13,961 bases of DNA, from assembly GCA_037443265.1 (NCBI GenBank), contig JBBIOR010000004.1, forward strand, positions 1-13,961. Direction: 5' to 3'. Below, in pieces: positions 3,001 through 13,961 of this stretch. Position numbers: made by a program. Position 1 is the stretch's first letter, and every line of letters starts with the position of its first letter. This stretch comes from Candidatus Fraserbacteria bacterium. Lineage in GTDB: Bacteria; Bipolaricaulota; Bipolaricaulia; RBG-16-55-9.

Positions 3001-6000
3001 AAACTTCGCCCTGCTCTATCGCGGATTTAAGAGCCGGCTGCGCTTCGGCTCCCTCTTGGCCCACGATGAGGAGTTCCGCTTCTATGTAGCTGTCTTTGCC
3101 TCCATGACGATACTGCTCGCCTTCGTGCTCCTTCTGGGCTCCCGCAGTGCGACCACCCTGGAAGAGACCCTAAGGCAGAGCGCTTTTCAAGTGGCTAGCC
3201 TCATGACCACCACCGGCTATGCCAACGCGGACTTCAATGATTGGGATTCGACCGCGAAGCTGCTTCTTTTGGCGCTCATGTTCTTGGGAGGCAGTGCCGG
3301 CAGCACCTCCGGCTCGATTAAGCTGGTGAGAACGCTGCTCATCTTCAAGCTGATGGGGCGCGAGATCCGGCGCATTCTTCATCCCCAGGCCGTCATCCCG
3401 ATCCGCTTGGGGTCCCGAGTGATCAGCGAGGAGGCCCTGAGCGGAATCATGATCTTCGCGATTCTTTATGTGACGATCTTCGCCTTGGGGAGCATCCTGC
3501 TCATGCTGGACGTGGAGCGGGTGGGGGGCATCCAGGGGCAGCCCCTGGCTGTGCTGGATGCCGTCAGTGCCGTGGCCGCCACCCTGGGGAACGTGGGCCC
3601 CGGATTTGGGGTCGTGGGACCCATGGCTTCCTATGCCCCGTTGCCTGACACTTCCAAAATGCTTCTCACGCTTCTCATGTGGATTGGGCGTCTGGAAATA
3701 TTCCCAGTGATCGTGCTGCTCACCCGGAGCTACTGGCGGGGATGATGGAGGGGACTCAGCGTATTTTTGTCATTTTGGGTCATACGGCCGCGATCACGCC
3801 CGAATTCACTCTCGATGATCTGCCGGGCAGCGCTGGCCGTCTGGATATCCTCTGCCGCTGCGTTACGGCCGCCTTCTGTCTCTCCCACGGCATCCGAAAA
3901 GACGTCGAGGTCTATCTGGTGTTGCGCGATCAAATCACTCTGCACGTTGAGGGGACTTCTCTTAGGAGGCTCAATCCCGACGAGCGGAGCACCGGTGCGC
4001 TCATTCAGCATGCGCTCCAAGCCCTCCAAGAAGGACGCACCCAAAGCACTCCCGGCCTGCGGGTCTGCCGGCAGGGCCTGCGGGACGTCTTAAGAGAACT
4101 CAACACCCAGGGTGTCCCGTGCTATGTGCTCGACGAACGCGGTCGAGACATGCGCACAGTCAGCATCGAAGAGCCGGTGGCGTTCCTCTTGAGCGATCAT
4201 CAAAATTTTACTCCTGAAGAAGAGGCTCTACTCTCAAGTCTTCCGAAGATCAGCCTGGGCCCCGTGGTGCTCCATGCGGATCACTCCATCGTGATTGCCC
4301 ATAACGAACTGGATCGGAGGGCCTTGCGCTTTGGGTCGGATTGTCGTAAGATCTCCCTTCTGATGGCCGAGCCCAAAGGCAAGCCCGTTCGAGAGTCGTG
4401 GGTGGAGATGGTCCAGGTGGTGCGGCCTGGGGATGCGAACCCTTTAGGGATCGCCTTCGGTGGGACGGTCGTGGCCTGGATGGACATGGCCGCGGCCGTG
4501 GCCGCCATGCGCCACGCGCGCAAACCTGTGGTCACCGCATCCATTGATAATTTGAGTTTTTTGTCGCCCATCCGCGTCGGTGAGCTCGCCATCATCCGCT
4601 CCGCTGTGCATTATACCGGCCGCACCTCCATGGAGGTCGGCGTCTGGATCGAATCTGAAAATCCCATCACGGGGGAGCGCAAGCCCACTACCCATGGCTA
4701 TCTGACCTTCGTGGCCTTGGATGAGCACGGCCGGCCCACGCCCGTTCCGCCCGTCATTCCGGAGACGCCTGAAGAGAAGCAGCGCTACAACGAAGCCAAG
4801 CGTCGCAGGGAATACAAGCTTAGGCTGAGGGAGGAGCAGGGGTGACCCTTAAGCCGCTTCTCGTCGATCGACTCCGGCCCCATGAGGCTACGGATCCGGC
4901 CATCCTGGAGAACTTGATCTCTGAGCTCAAGGTGAAGGGGAGCCTGAAAGACCCGATCATCGTGGATCGAGAGACGCTCGTGATCCTAGACGGCCACCAT
5001 CGCCATGCCGCGTATAAGGCGCTCGGCTTTAAGCAGGTCCCCTGCCTCTTAGTGGATTATCGCTCGCCCCAGGTGCGGGTCCTGCCCCGGCGACCGGAGA
5101 TCCCTGTGTCGAAAGAGGAAGTCATTCGCCGGGGTCTACAGGGCGAACTCTATCCGCCTAAGACGACCCGCCATATTTTCATCGGGCTGGCCTTGAGTCC
5201 CTCACTTGAGCAATCCCCTCGATTTGCACTACAATACGATCAAGATGGCTTATGATCCGCCAGGAGATAGCGAGGATTTCAGTGGCTCTCCCCAGAAGGA
5301 TCGCCAGCTCATGGTCGAGCGCCTGCGCGGGCAGGGCATCCGCGCTGAGCGTGTGCTCGCAGCCATGGCCCGAATCCCCCGACATCGCTTCGTGAGCGAG
5401 CAGTACTGGGATCAGGCTTACGCTGACCATCCCCTGCCCATCGAGGATGGCCAGACGATCTCCCAGCCCTACATCGTAGCGCTCATGACAGAAGCTTTGG
5501 AGCTAAAGCCGCAGGCGCGGGTTCTCGAAATCGGCACGGGCTCCGGCTATCAGACGGCGATTCTTGCCGAGCTGGCTGGCGGGGTTTATACTATAGAGCG
5601 GTCTCGCGTGCTCTTGGAGAAGGCGCGCGAGCGCCTGGAGGCGGCAGGATATCTTAATGTCCACTTCAAGCTGGGAGATGGCACCCTAGGTTGGGAGGAG
5701 TTCGCGCCCTATGAGGCCATCATCGCGACCGGCGCGGTTCCTAAGGTGCCACCTTCACTCATTCGACAACTAGGCGACGGGGGAAGGCTCGTCCTTCCCG
5801 TCGGAGATCGCCGAGTGCAGACGCTTCTTTTGATCCGACGGCGCGGTGAGACCCTCAGCGAGCGCGCACTCTGCCATTGCAGCTTCCTGCCCCTGGTGGG
5901 AAAGGAGGGATGGCCGGAGGAAGAACGGACTCGCAACTGAACTGAGCAGACGCACTGTGGACTGTCGTCAAAGTTGAAATCGGAACCGAATGAATCCAAA

Positions 6001-12000: not shown

Positions 12001-13961
12001 TAGTAGCGCGTTTTAGGCTGGCTCCTTCTCAGATCTTGATCGTCTATGACGATCATGCTCTGCCGTTGGGGACGATGCGCGCCCGTGCCCGCGGCAGCTC
12101 CGGAGGTCACCACGGCATGGAGTCGATCATCGCCGCCTTAGGCACAGAAGGGATCCCTCGCCTGAGATTGGGCATTGCTACGGAGACAAGCTCAGCCCTG
12201 GAAGATCTCACGGAGTATGTCTTGGGCCAATTCACACCTGAAGAGGAAGAAAAGCTCGCTCCTCTTTTAACTCGTGCGGCCGAAGCCATCGACTGCTTCT
12301 TCCAGCAAGATATCGCGGCCGTGATGAATCGATTCAATCGCTAAGGGGGAGCGAAAGAAGCCCTCTAGGCACAAAGAGCACAAAAATCACGAGCAGAATC
12401 AAAAACAGAAGGGTGATCCACCCCTGGCCCTCGAGAAACCTCAGCGCTCCCACCTGGATGGTCAGCTCGCTCAAGAATTGCTGGCTGAGCTTGAGAAAAA
12501 CTGCTCCCAGGAGCGGCCCTACGATTGTCCCAAGCCCGCCCACCACGCACGCGACAATGATCATCAGCGATAAATCTAGACTGAGTACCCCATCGAGACC
12601 ACCCGGCTGCAGGACGGCCAGCACAGGCAGATGCACATAGGCGGCTCCGGCACTGATCAGAAACGCCAGAGCACAATTCCAATCATGGCCATCAGCCCCA
12701 AGGAGTAGTAGTACGTGATGAGCTTGACTTGGGCCTTACCAGCGCGAGATACGGCCCGCGCAAGCGGATGGCGGGAATCCCGATCAAGAGGCCGGCCAGA
12801 ATGGCCGCGGCCGTCCCCATCGGGATCGTCAGCGTCGGAGGCCAGCCCAGATGGACGCTGGTGAGCCCGCTGACATAGGCGGCCACTCCAATGAAGAACG
12901 CCTGTCCCAAATTGATTTGTCCCGCGTATCCGCCCAGGAGGTCCCAGCTCATGGCAAAGATCGCAAAGAAATGGGCGAAGATGAGTCTCGAATACATCGC
13001 CTCAGGGAGTAGCCCCAGGGCCGGTAGCAGGGCCAAGAGCATCACGATCGAAATAAACACGAGATGTGCTGCCGTAGATCGCTTCATGCGTGGTTTCCTC
13101 ATGGGGCTGGCCTCCCCAAAAGCCCCTGAGGGCGCAAGACAAGATGAGAATGAGCACCGTAAGTGCCAAGGAGGGCACTCCCACCCACGCCGGACCCAGC
13201 GGGAGGGAGAGCTGAGGCGCAAAGGAGGTGATGGTCTCCACAAGACCTACGAGATAGGCTGCCAGCAGCGCGCCGGCCAAGCTTCCCAGGCCGCCCAAGA
13301 TGACGATGGCCAACGAGATGATGAGGGGGTCAATCCACATGCGGGGATCCATCCCTCCAGGATAGGAGAAGAAGATTCCGGCCAGTCCCGCCGAGGCGCC
13401 CGAGATCGCCCACGTGAGCGTGTAGATGTGATCTGGGTTGATGCCCACCAGAGCCGCACCGGTCCGGCTCATGGCGGTCGCGCGCACCGCCTTGCCAAAG
13501 CGGGTGCAGGCGATCAACAGCCAGAAGGCCCCCAGAGCCAGCCAAGAGACGAGAAAGGCCGCCAGCTGGACGTTCTGGACGCGCACGCCCAAGAGTCGGG
13601 TCTCTCCGGAGACCGGCGGCGGCAGGCTCTTTGCGTGCAGTCCGAAAGCGATGGCGACCAGCTCCTGCAAGATCCACGTGATGGCCAATGACACAAGGAG
13701 TGTGAGGATCGGCGAGTGCTGGACGCGATGGATCACGCTCCGGTAGAGGCCGGCGGCCACCAGGGCCGTGGGTGGCCAGCACGCCGAGCCCCAAGGAGAG
13801 CCAAATAGGCCGTAAAGAGGGGCTGTCTAGGCGGTGTGGTGAAGCGCTGGGTGTAGGCTTGGAAGAACGGCAGAGTTCTCTCGGTGATCGCGGTCGCGCC
13901 AGTGGCCGCATCGGCGTAGATGTGCGAAATCGTTTTGCCCTGGGTGTCGTTCCAGTACTCA

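Follow-up and report, generated by a model that had tools for sequence, protein, structure and literature searches.

The genome of the Candidatus Fraserbacteria bacterium under study (G000; 88% complete, 44 contigs) encodes the two archaeal-type tRNA modification enzymes Pus10 and TrmY and lacks TruB, TruA, TruD, TrmA and TrmFO in profile searches. Judged by their archaeal and human counterparts, Pus10 and TrmY probably replace TruB and TrmA, and the tRNA elbow would be modified in the archaeal way, with m1-pseudouridine at position 54 and pseudouridine at position 55. The NCBI annotation already names both proteins Pus10 and TrmY, and no paper on either enzyme in these bacteria was found. New here are TrmFO in one genus of the phylum (g22), the forefinger loop conserved in 55 of 55 Pus10 sequences, the Pus10 of Halanaerobiales, a Bipolaricaulota genus with Pus10 of the Halanaerobiales type, and a TrmY-thioesterase fusion seen in G000 alone among the relatives checked.

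Genomic context

The window, i.e. the whole stretch of DNA analysed, comprises 13,961 nucleotides of contig C4, along which all positions are counted. The genes for PRPP synthetase (10039-10977), ribosomal protein L25/TL5 (11038-11745) and bacterial peptidyl-tRNA hydrolase Pth (11772-12344), all on the forward strand and not part of the T-loop system, show that the contig is bacterial. TrmY and Pus10 are encoded on one contig together with bacterial TrkAH, L25/TL5, Pth and RuvX. Close Pus10 homologues from the host phylum are labelled Candidatus Bipolaricaulota or Acetothermia at NCBI.

The TrmY-thioesterase reading frame

A single open reading frame on the forward strand (3679-4845, 388 codons, 388 aa) carries Methyltrn_RNA_2 followed by 4HBT, as expected from the first-pass annotation, which had reported TrmY fused in frame to a thioesterase domain. 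Its start is uncertain, with GTG at 3679 or ATG at 3742, the latter just ahead of the TrmY profile match. The TrmY domain (3760..4320, +) is a SPOUT methyltransferase and a predicted tRNA pseudouridine-54 N1-methyltransferase; it is complete despite the fusion. Pfam Methyltrn_RNA_2 (PF04013) matches residues 28-214 with an E-value of 7.3e-52, and the frame scores 216.5 bits against the NCBIfam TrmY equivalog NF002560, above its cut-off of 183. Among solved structures, MJ1640 (E 3.5e-37) and AF_1056 (E 1.8e-33) are matched far better than Vibrio VC_A1059 (E 9.6e-13).

TrmY usually occurs as a separate SPOUT protein some 200 residues long, a form from which the 388 codons of G000 depart. In relatives the TrmY frame ends 5-8 codons past the motif HNELDRR; in G000 it continues through the junction (4321..4362, +) without a stop. 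Junction translations of G100, G101, G103, G104, G105 and G072 gave two separate genes in 6/6 cases, and among the relatives checked only G000 has the fusion. The second part (4363..4845, +) encodes an acyl-CoA thioesterase of the hotdog fold (Pfam 4HBT, residues 257-329, E 5.8e-18), which matches solved acyl-CoA hydrolases such as 1vpm (E 1.6e-36). It opens at an internal ATG (residue 229) corresponding to the start of the relatives' separate thioesterase gene; the thioesterase gene next to trmY in genomes of families f1 and f2 shows 74-85% identity. The fusion most likely arose recently from two adjoining genes when TrmY lost its stop codon, and there was no sign that the in-frame thioesterase takes part in the T-loop mechanism. 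The stretch 3679..4845 is covered, with 0 differences and 0 gaps, by a 14,440-base Logan contig from run X1, which may be the source sample.

Pus10 and its substrate

The complete Pus10 gene lies past the window end at 13961, most likely at C4:14886-16130 (+, 414 aa). The first-pass annotation had placed it at 14445-16130; the gene itself stands, with matches to TIGR01213 and Pus10_C, but those coordinates describe the longest open frame, whose first 147 codons are antisense to ruvX, so that ATG 14886 is the likely start. The gene and ruvX point away from each other, their start codons 55 bases apart. The Pus10_C profile matches at 15393-16109 (E 3.0e-70), and the protein shows Pus10_THUMP_arc (E 1.9e-22) together with Pus10_C (E 2.5e-69; PF21238 plus PF22023). 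Against the Pus10 equivalog TIGR01213 it reaches 515.2 bits (cut-off 200), with residues 5-408 covering positions 1-401 of the 402 in the profile. The structure of human PUS10 (2v9k) is matched with an E-value of 8.5e-34, and structures of the Cbf5/TruB type give a weak local match (E about 1e-5 to 2e-4).

Residue conservation was scored on 55 Pus10 sequences extracted from the phylum. The GREDxD motif, previously noted as kept, comprises the catalytic Asp, flanked at a distance of two residues by an Arg on the N-terminal side and an Asp on the C-terminal side (PMC6380271); the corresponding R235, D237 and D239 are invariant in 55/55 sequences. Y303, R340 and L403 are likewise conserved in 55/55 and H339 in 54/55. 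When counted as offsets from the catalytic Asp, not by alignment to MjPus10, the conserved residues fall within 1-2 positions of R273, D275, Y339, H376/R377 and L440 of MjPus10, the Pus10 of Methanocaldococcus jannaschii, residues taken from Joardar 2013 (PMC3753934). Human PUS10 shares the thumb His-Arg in the alignment.

All 55 sequences have a forefinger loop of full length, with four invariant cysteines (Cys189, 192, 197 and 200). Cys189 and Cys200 precede the catalytic Asp by 48 and 37 residues, the same offsets as those of Cys227 and Cys238 in MjPus10. Of these, Cys227 belongs to segment ffl1 and Cys238 to ffl2, and deletion of these segments is reported to abolish the activity for pseudouridine 54 and not that for pseudouridine 55 (PMC3753934). 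On the substrate side, T54-T55-C56 and A58 were found in 40/40 tRNA genes of G000 (U54-U55-C56 in the RNA), the same count as reported before for U54-U55.

Bacterial-type enzymes

The searches of G000 agree with the claimed lack of the bacterial-type enzymes. TruB_N found nothing at E-values up to 1, the TruA and TruD profiles gave no match, the TrmA family gave one 13.7-bit fragment only, and TrmFO only two N-terminal fragments of 10-12 bits. As the TruB_N model is positive in 14/14 control genomes, including all four archaeal controls, its negative result also indicates that G000 has no Cbf5. Trm56 and TrmI, other archaeal T-loop enzymes, are absent from G000 as well, which counts against a wholly archaeal T-loop and would confine the archaeal type to positions 54 and 55. 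Two RluA-family synthases are present: an RluD-like enzyme that includes an S4 domain, and another that is RluC/TruC-like.

The phylum survey covered 184 genomes, mostly metagenome bins, of which 71 are high-quality. TruB_N exceeded its cut-off in 0/184 and gave two weak matches; the one examined is an RluA-family synthase. The TrmA family passed in 3/184 genomes, all marginal partial matches, and TruA in 3/184, marginal and all in one genus, which bears out the absence of the three enzymes asserted for the phylum. TrmD, used as a bacterial control gene, was detected in 171/184 genomes (70/71 high-quality), so incompleteness cannot account for the missing TruB.

Distribution of Pus10, TrmY and TrmFO

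Pus10_C was found in 168/184 genomes of the phylum, in 71/71 high-quality genomes and in 52/54 genera, reproducing the universality claimed earlier; three of the holders are single-contig genomes. TrmY occurs in 144/184 genomes (66/71 high-quality) and goes along with a Pus10 that is predicted to act on position 54. The 11 genomes with TrmY and no Pus10 match are all 69-85% complete. TrmY is absent from family f9 (0/19) and genus g22 (0/11), the same pattern of one family and one genus as described before under other group codes (f10 and g27).

TrmFO exceeds its cut-off in 9/184 genomes, all of genus g22 (9/11). Its reported lack therefore holds for G000 and does not extend to the phylum, within which TrmY and TrmFO are mutually exclusive. 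Two groups count against the archaeal reading. Pus10 of genus g22 retains the four-cysteine forefinger although TrmFO is present, so loop length alone does not predict specificity; and family f9 has Pus10 and neither TrmY nor TrmFO, which means that a full-length forefinger is not always paired with a position-54 methylase.

The Pus10 trait is not confined to the Bipolaricaulota: part of the order of Candidatus Frackibacter (Halanaerobiales) shares it without TruB. Among 19 genomes of this order, seven have Pus10, seven have TruB and none has both; in two of them Pus10 is located on contig 1, at 553,642 and 911,733. The order is an independent replicate of the exchange of Pus10 and TruB at position 55. 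Its Pus10 has lost the forefinger knuckle (15-17 residues deleted) and TrmY was found in 0/19 genomes; forefinger and TrmY go together here. The remaining five genomes have neither TruB nor Pus10, which counts against a general requirement: some bacteria may need neither enzyme or use a third one.

In an unrooted tree restricted to the nearest 150 cluster representatives, the Pus10 of the phylum form their own clade (98% SH-aLRT for the main clade) and are not scattered among archaea. The union of this main clade with eight representatives has 95% support, and four of these eight have named members, assigned to Halobacteriota, Euryarchaeota, Halobacteria or Methanosarcinales. In one genus of the phylum, Pus10 is of the Halanaerobiales type, with an origin unlike that of the rest.

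Proposed pathway and comparison with known systems

The ancestor of the phylum may have acquired Pus10 and TrmY from archaea, Pus10 being nearest to that of Halobacteriota (Methanosarcinales, Methanocellales, Halobacteria), and would either have lost TruB, TrmA and TrmFO or never have possessed them. We infer this direction of transfer from the unrooted tree and its limited set of representatives, and the activities and target positions from archaeal and human enzymes. Pus10 would use its zinc-ribbon and THUMP accessory domain to bind the tRNA and would isomerise U55, the usual task of TruB; with a full-length four-cysteine forefinger it would isomerise U54 as well. TrmY would then methylate N1 of pseudouridine 54 with S-adenosylmethionine, as described for archaeal enzymes (PMC7912444, PMC9508554). 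The resulting T-loop, with m1-pseudouridine 54 and pseudouridine 55, would be like that of euryarchaea. The TrmD control, the bacterial contig, the intact forefinger and the mutual exclusion of TrmY and TrmFO all argue for the archaeal route to pseudouridine 55 and 54 that the first-pass annotation had proposed.

The closest known system is the archaeal pathway of Methanocaldococcus jannaschii and Haloferax volcanii, in which pseudouridine 54 and 55 are followed by m1-pseudouridine 54. G000 shares with it the same two equivalog families, the same Pus10 layout (N-terminal CxxC...CxxC, archaeal THUMP, catalytic domain with GREDxD), the cysteine offsets of the MjPus10 forefinger, the lack of TruB and TrmA, and U54-U55 throughout the tRNA genes. 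G000 differs in its bacterial host background with TrmD, Pth, L25 and RuvX, in the lack of Cbf5, Trm56 and TrmI and in the fusion of TrmY to a thioesterase.

Thermococcales, with Pus10 for pseudouridine 55 only and a bacterial RlmD-derived m5U methyltransferase for position 54, present a mirror image, in which a T-loop enzyme crossed the domains and the specificity of the resident Pus10 fits (PMC3753934). Genus g22, with Pus10 and TrmFO, and the Halanaerobiales, with a forefinger-deleted Pus10, both lack TrmY and resemble this arrangement, whereas the transfer into the phylum would have run in the opposite direction, from archaeon to bacterium, and g22 keeps the four-cysteine loop. With TrmY and a full forefinger loop, G000 resembles M. 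jannaschii and not Pyrococcus. The bacterial system of TruB with TrmA or TrmFO, which yields pseudouridine 55 and ribothymidine 54, uses the same tRNA positions and the same G53-U54-U55-C56 substrate, but its enzyme families are unrelated or distantly related; G000 falls outside it, with no TruB_N match and only 10-14-bit fragments of TrmA and TrmFO. Human PUS10 (2v9k) aligns in its catalytic domain over residues 167-409 and has GREDxD, the thumb His-Arg and GxY(I/V)KE in common with the protein of G000, but it is longer (530 residues) and, where the forefinger aligns, has no four-cysteine insertion. Eukaryotes retain TRUB1 beside PUS10 (PMC7749629).

Alternative explanations

Pus10 might make pseudouridine 55 only, with U54 left bare or pseudouridylated in few tRNAs and TrmY directed at another pseudouridine in tRNA or rRNA. 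Pus10 of Pyrococcus furiosus is described as yielding pseudouridine 55 alone (PMC7912444, PMC3753934), family f9 and the Halanaerobiales have Pus10 without TrmY, and PF04013 includes at least one bacterial member of no known role, Vibrio VC_A1059, a point that also counts against an archaeal-type position 54. We nevertheless regard this explanation as unlikely: the four forefinger cysteines persist throughout the phylum set while the loop is lost in the TrmY-less Halanaerobiales, TrmY scores above its equivalog cut-off and resembles MJ1640 far more than VC_A1059, and the position-54 methylase TrmFO is confined to a genus without TrmY. In addition, TrmY is reported to be active only on Pus10-treated tRNA (PMC9508554).

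Quite improbable is an action of both enzymes on other RNAs, with pseudouridine 55 absent or supplied by one of G000's two RluA-family synthases. In humans, PUS10 takes part in microRNA processing independently of catalysis (PMC9957541), and the five genomes of the Frackibacter order without TruB and Pus10 would fit such a situation. Yet Pus10 and TruB are mutually exclusive in 19/19 genomes of that order and across the 184 of the phylum, as functional replacement predicts, the U54-U55 substrate is kept in all tRNA genes, and no report of an RluA-family enzyme making pseudouridine 55 was found in the passages available. Mis-binned archaeal contigs combined with a TruB missed through bin incompleteness are barely conceivable, even with a fragmented G000 and a survey built mostly on metagenome bins, against the bacterial neighbours of TrmY and Pus10, the high-quality and single-contig Pus10 holders, TrmD in 171 of the same genomes, the separate phylum clade and the Pus10 loci on contig 1 of two Frackibacter-order genomes.

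Implications

The reviews consulted place m1-pseudouridine at position 54 in archaea only, and reviews say that bacteria lack Pus10 and TrmY; the presence of both enzymes in this phylum runs counter to the latter. For the wider history of the T-loop enzymes we lean, by a small measure, towards a scenario in which Pus10 displaced TruB, nearly universal in bacteria, at least twice, once at the base of the Bipolaricaulota/Acetothermia and once inside the Halanaerobiales order, the second type later passing between bacteria into one Bipolaricaulota genus. The forefinger knuckle would track TrmY, such that most Bipolaricaulota would carry m1-pseudouridine 54, and the Halanaerobiales pseudouridine 55 from a Pus10 restricted to that position.

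Distribution of tRNA T-loop enzymes in the phylum

Pus10, the archaeal tRNA pseudouridine 54/55 synthase, is universal in the phylum Bipolaricaulota and TruB, the usual bacterial enzyme, is absent, as the first-pass annotation had stated. The Pus10_C profile scores above its cut-off in 168 of the 184 species genomes, including 71 of the 71 high-quality genomes and 52 of 54 genera; completeness is 66-87% in the 16 that give no match. TruB_N exceeds its cut-off in none of the 184 genomes and gives two weak matches of 17-20 bits. The weak match in genome G028 was rejected as TruB, the protein being of the RluA family with an S4 domain. 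Bacterial TrmD, used as a control with a model that matches 10 bacterial and 0 archaeal control genomes, was found in 171 of the 184 genomes (70 of 71 high-quality); genome incompleteness therefore does not account for the missing TruB, and the genomes are those of bacteria.

TrmY, the pseudouridine-54 N1-methyltransferase, occurs in 144 of the 184 genomes and in 66 of the 71 of high quality. It is missing from one family, f9 (0/19), and from one genus, g22 (0/11), in agreement with the earlier description. The absence of TruA and TrmA proposed for the phylum likewise holds, with three marginal and three partial matches, respectively, in 184 genomes. The TruA matches above cut-off all belong to genus g50 and lie within frames of about 1060 codons, and each TrmA family match covers less than 100 of 357 profile positions. 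The g50 loci L044-L047 hold the only TruA-like matches in the phylum, at 22-28 bits, in open frames of 767-1072 codons. The top match to the TrmA/RlmD family (locus L036, G092:C5; 38.4 bits, profile positions 287-354) is located at a contig end of a 70% complete genome and may represent either a genuine m5U methyltransferase truncated at that point or contamination.

T-loop enzymes and tRNA genes of the Candidatus Fraserbacteria genome

The Candidatus Fraserbacteria genome (G000) comprises 1.69 Mb in 44 contigs with a completeness of 88%. TruB, TruA, TruD, TrmA and TrmFO, all listed as missing by the first-pass annotation, yielded nothing or low-bit fragments in profile searches: no match to TruB_N at E values up to 1, none to TruA or TruD, a single fragment of 13.7 bits for the TrmA family, and, for TrmFO, two fragments (10-12 bits) confined to profile positions 1-34. 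Trm56 and TrmI, sought as signs of a fuller archaeal T-loop, gave no match and sub-threshold fragments only, respectively. Two RluA-family synthases are encoded: the first resembles RluD and has an S4 domain, the second resembles RluC/TruC. The 40 tRNA genes predicted by ARAGORN all have a five-pair T stem, a loop opening with TTC, A58 and a purine at position 57 (29 genes with G, 11 with A), so that U54-U55 is kept in 40 of 40 as reported before.

The Pus10 gene and its conserved residues

The Pus10_C match of G000 is located at 15393-16109 of contig C4 (JBBIOR010000004.1), with an E value of 3.0e-70. The gene itself stands; the 561-codon open frame 14445-16130 first assigned to it does not, as its first 147 codons overlap ruvX on the opposite strand. 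The likely start is the ATG at 14886, 55 bases from the ruvX start, which gives a protein of 414 residues; the Pus10 proteins of relatives are mostly 403-445 residues long. The protein combines a THUMP domain of the archaeal Pus10 type with the catalytic domain and scores 515.2 bits against an equivalog cut-off of 200; its match to 2v9k, the structure of human PUS10, has an E value of 8.5e-34.

For M. jannaschii Pus10 (MjPus10), Joardar et al. 2013 (PMC3753934) describe two forefinger segments, ffl1 (Cys227-Arg231) and ffl2 (Cys238-Val249), as required for pseudouridine 54 and dispensable for pseudouridine 55; D275, R273, Y339, L440 and the thumb residues H376/R377 are also named there, and MjPus10 was assayed in an E. 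coli truB trmA double mutant. The catalytic Asp of the G000 protein is D237, and Cys189 and Cys200 stand at the exact offsets of MjPus10 Cys227 and Cys238, the correspondences resting on distance from the catalytic Asp and not on an alignment to MjPus10. Conservation was assessed in 55 Pus10 sequences from 55 loci, of which 30 were selected for the best scores and 25 were picked by hand; each of the phylum's 11 family codes is represented. The four forefinger cysteines, R235, D237, D239, Y303, R340 and L403 are invariant in these sequences, R235, D237 and D239 being residues of the GREDxD motif that had been described as kept. The N-terminal CxxC pairs are invariant wherever the N-terminus is present, and H339 is retained in 54 of 55.

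TrmY and the thioesterase fusion

TrmY of G000 is encoded by a 388-codon open frame at 3679-4845 on the plus strand, in which residues 28-214 match Pfam Methyltrn_RNA_2 (E 7.3e-52) and residues 257-329 match 4HBT, a thioesterase family (E 5.8e-18). The TrmY part scores 216.5 bits against an NCBIfam equivalog cut-off of 183. It aligns end to end with the solved structures of MJ1640 (M. jannaschii, E 3.5e-37) and AF_1056 (E 1.8e-33), whereas the end-to-end alignment with the solved VC_A1059 of Vibrio is far weaker (E 9.6e-13). For the C-terminal part the likeness is to acyl-CoA hydrolases, 1vpm among them (E 1.6e-36).

TrmY loci were compared across 16 relatives. In genomes of families f1 and f2 a thioesterase gene, 74-85% identical, lies 3' of TrmY. 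The junction was translated in six genomes (G100, G101, G103, G104, G105 and G072); in all six TrmY stops 5-8 codons past HNELDRR and the thioesterase has its own ATG, at the site of the internal Met229 of the G000 frame. In G098 and G099 the thioesterase is found about 1.5 kb farther downstream, and in G102 the locus is interrupted by a contig end. Among the relatives checked, read-through occurs only in G000. A Logan contig of 14,440 bases from sequencing run X1 spans the TrmY stretch with 0 differences, so the junction is the same in a second assembly program, run X1 being possibly the source sample and hence not independent. Runs X2, X4 and X5 cover little or none of the stretch, and none of the listed sequencing runs is an RNA run that covers it. 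We read the fusion as a recent loss of the stop codon, which is probably of no consequence to the pathway. A functional part for the thioesterase in the system was rejected because the six relatives with translated junctions have no fusion.

Gene neighborhood

The TrmY frame is preceded on the plus strand by TrkA (687-2258) and TrkH (2255-3745). It is followed, also on the plus strand, by a 137-codon open frame (4842-5255) with no Pfam match, a protein-isoaspartate methyltransferase (5206-5940), a PKD/plastocyanin protein (5990-7063), a DUF1028 protein (7063-7959), an FtsX-type permease (8800-9984), PRPP synthetase (10039-10977), ribosomal protein L25/TL5 (11038-11745) and peptidyl-tRNA hydrolase (11772-12344). 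The 137-codon frame shares 50 bases with the beginning of the following gene. Its match to the model of SerK, the archaeal ADP-dependent serine kinase, is a partial one, restricted to model positions 1-100, and at 73 bits is far below the cut-off of 380. A branched-chain amino-acid permease on the minus strand is split into two overlapping frames (12692-13243 and 13002-13760; profile positions 6-87 and 83-268), and the split at 12692-13760 stems from a frameshift in the gene or from a sequencing error. No tRNA genes were found inside the window, which spans positions 1-13961 of contig C4, and the GC content across it is uniform at 0.58-0.63. A run of masked bases (N) starts just 3' of the window end (about 70-170 of locus L001, contig C4) and breaks a minus-strand open frame with a twin-arginine-like signal.

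The long span of the finding is merely the distance from TrmY to Pus10; the intervening genes are outside the system. TrmY and Pus10 lie 11-15 kb apart on one contig and one strand in three genomes of family f1 (G100:C3, G104:C1 and G000:C4). The linkage is conserved in these three genomes, yet it is no operon.

TrmFO and TrmY

TrmFO had been reported absent from G000 alone, and this holds for that genome; extended to the phylum it does not. At the high cut-off of its profile (428.65 bits), TrmFO was found in nine of the 184 genomes, eight of them at about 600 bits, and all nine belong to the 11 genomes of g22, the genus without TrmY. TrmFO, a bacterial-type methylase for position 54, is thus present just where TrmY is lost, as expected if TrmY serves position 54. 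Family f9 has neither enzyme. Another 90 genomes show matches to the TrmFO model at positions of about 261-390 only, mostly in frames of about 600-700 codons, which are taken to be MnmG. These MnmG-like matches occur in families f4, f5, f7, f9, f10 and f11, and none was seen in f1, f2, f3, f8, or f6 outside g22; MnmG may be missing from f1, f2, f3, f8 and most f6 lineages, G000 included.

The Pus10 of g22 (loci L056-L060) keeps the four-cysteine forefinger despite having TrmFO in place of TrmY. Beside the forefinger, IPQT is replaced by (I/L)AQT, and the GKQYPES stretch is without Tyr-Pro. These substitutions may narrow the enzyme to position 55. Ribothymidine 54 and pseudouridine 55 are predicted for the tRNAs of g22, and an unmethylated pseudouridine or U at position 54 for those of f9.

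Pus10 in a second bacterial group

In the FastTree phylogeny, genus g33 of family f9 neighbors a cluster named by NCBI as Pus10 of Candidatus Frackibacter (Halanaerobiales, Bacillota). Candidatus Frackibacter sp. WG13 has Pus10, no TruB_N match and no TrmY; a contig search with the Frackibacter Pus10 protein, which was not a wider bacterial census, matched the WG13 genome alone. Among 19 genomes of the Frackibacter order, seven have Pus10_C, seven others have TruB_N, none has both and five have neither (G185, G189, G190, G192 and G193). In these five, either pseudouridine 55 is not formed, or its formation falls to a third enzyme, or the genome sequences are incomplete. TrmY was found in 0 of the 19, and so was TrmFO; with TrmFO the only m5U methylase sought in this order, its absence is uninformative on position 54 there. 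In the phylum to which Candidatus Frackibacter belongs, Pus10_C exceeds its cut-off in two of 201 sampled genomes, both from the Frackibacter order.

The seven Halanaerobiales Pus10 proteins share a deletion of 15-17 residues that removes the four-cysteine loop known as the forefinger knuckle, and in three of the seven the thumb His-Arg is gone as well. The difference between the main Bipolaricaulota clade, which has a full knuckle and TrmY, and Halanaerobiales, which have neither, fits the contrast between M. jannaschii and Pyrococcus given in PMC3753934. The Halanaerobiales Pus10 is accordingly predicted to form pseudouridine 55 only. Statistics are omitted for this pattern because kin are not independent. 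The g33 Pus10 (loci L061-L064) groups with Halanaerobiales and not with its own phylum, yet retains the knuckle.

Phylogeny and origin of Pus10

The FastTree phylogeny was built from 54 phylum sequences (one partial sequence was dropped) and 123 of the best 150 cluster representatives (370-500 residues). It places 48 phylum sequences in one clade and six f9 sequences elsewhere. IQ-TREE was run under LG+C20 by PMSF with a short search. Its 85 rows comprised 22 sequences from the 48-member main clade, the full set of six from f9, the seven from Halanaerobiales, and 50 representatives selected among the 123 so as to cover the FastTree clades. FastTree had kept f9 genera g34 and g35 apart from the main clade; that placement was dropped, since this site-heterogeneous tree puts both inside: the main clade joins g34, g35 and two representatives, one of them labelled Bipolaricaulota by NCBI, with an SH-aLRT of 98%. 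The union of the main clade with eight representatives receives 95%; the four of these with named cluster members are assigned to Halobacteriota, Euryarchaeota, Halobacteria or Methanosarcinales. Genus g33 groups with Halanaerobiales and two unnamed representatives at an SH-aLRT of 99%, the sole support for its separate placement; a representative labelled as a DPANN archaeon lies near this group with less than 95% support.

The best-ranked named match outside the phylum is a Methanocellales archaeon (52% identity). A higher-ranked match, at 56%, is labelled Candidatus Fraserbacteria and falls within the identity range of the phylum. We read the tree as one old transfer from an archaeon to a bacterium at the base of the phylum, with what would be a second transfer into Halanaerobiales and a putative exchange of Pus10 between halophile-associated bacteria. 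Since the tree has no root and its sampling is limited to near relatives, the direction of transfer is an inference.

Implications

Field reviews (PMC7912444, PMC6380271) place Pus10 outside Bacteria, and TrmY is stated to be archaea-only in PMC5372735. The NCBI pipeline already applies the labels 'tRNA pseudouridine(54/55) synthase Pus10' and 'TrmY' to Candidatus Bipolaricaulota, Acetothermia and Frackibacter records. A full-text search found no paper pairing Pus10 with Acetothermi-, Bipolaricaul- or Halanaerobi-, with a mention of bacterial homologues possible in Fitzek 2018 (PMC5863725), Chatterjee 2012 (PMC3285931) and Wurm 2012 (PMC3285930); the one paper that brings Bipolaricaulota and pseudouridine together concerns ribosome biogenesis factors. 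In PMC10645885, one of the papers in which 'trub' stands beside the names of the phylum, the word belongs to an author.

The observation is confirmed and its interpretation supported. Both enzymes belong to known families and are ordinary members of them, and it is the domain of the host that is unexpected: the view that there is no bacterial Pus10 is contradicted across an entire phylum and in some members of a second bacterial order unrelated to it. The interest lies in the displacement of TruB, in the second independent case and in a testable prediction for position 54. None of the 184 and 19 genomes searched has both TruB and Pus10, a natural replacement experiment for pseudouridine 55, and the pairing of the knuckle with TrmY, as against no knuckle without TrmY, offers a testable sequence rule. 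Annotation pipelines and marker-gene sets that take TruB as universal in bacteria are also concerned. For the organisms themselves, m1-pseudouridine 54 is predicted in bacterial tRNA, and since a preprint (bioRxiv 10.1101/2025.11.21.689855) reports that a member of the phylum, strain J31, has been grown in pure culture, this prediction is directly testable.
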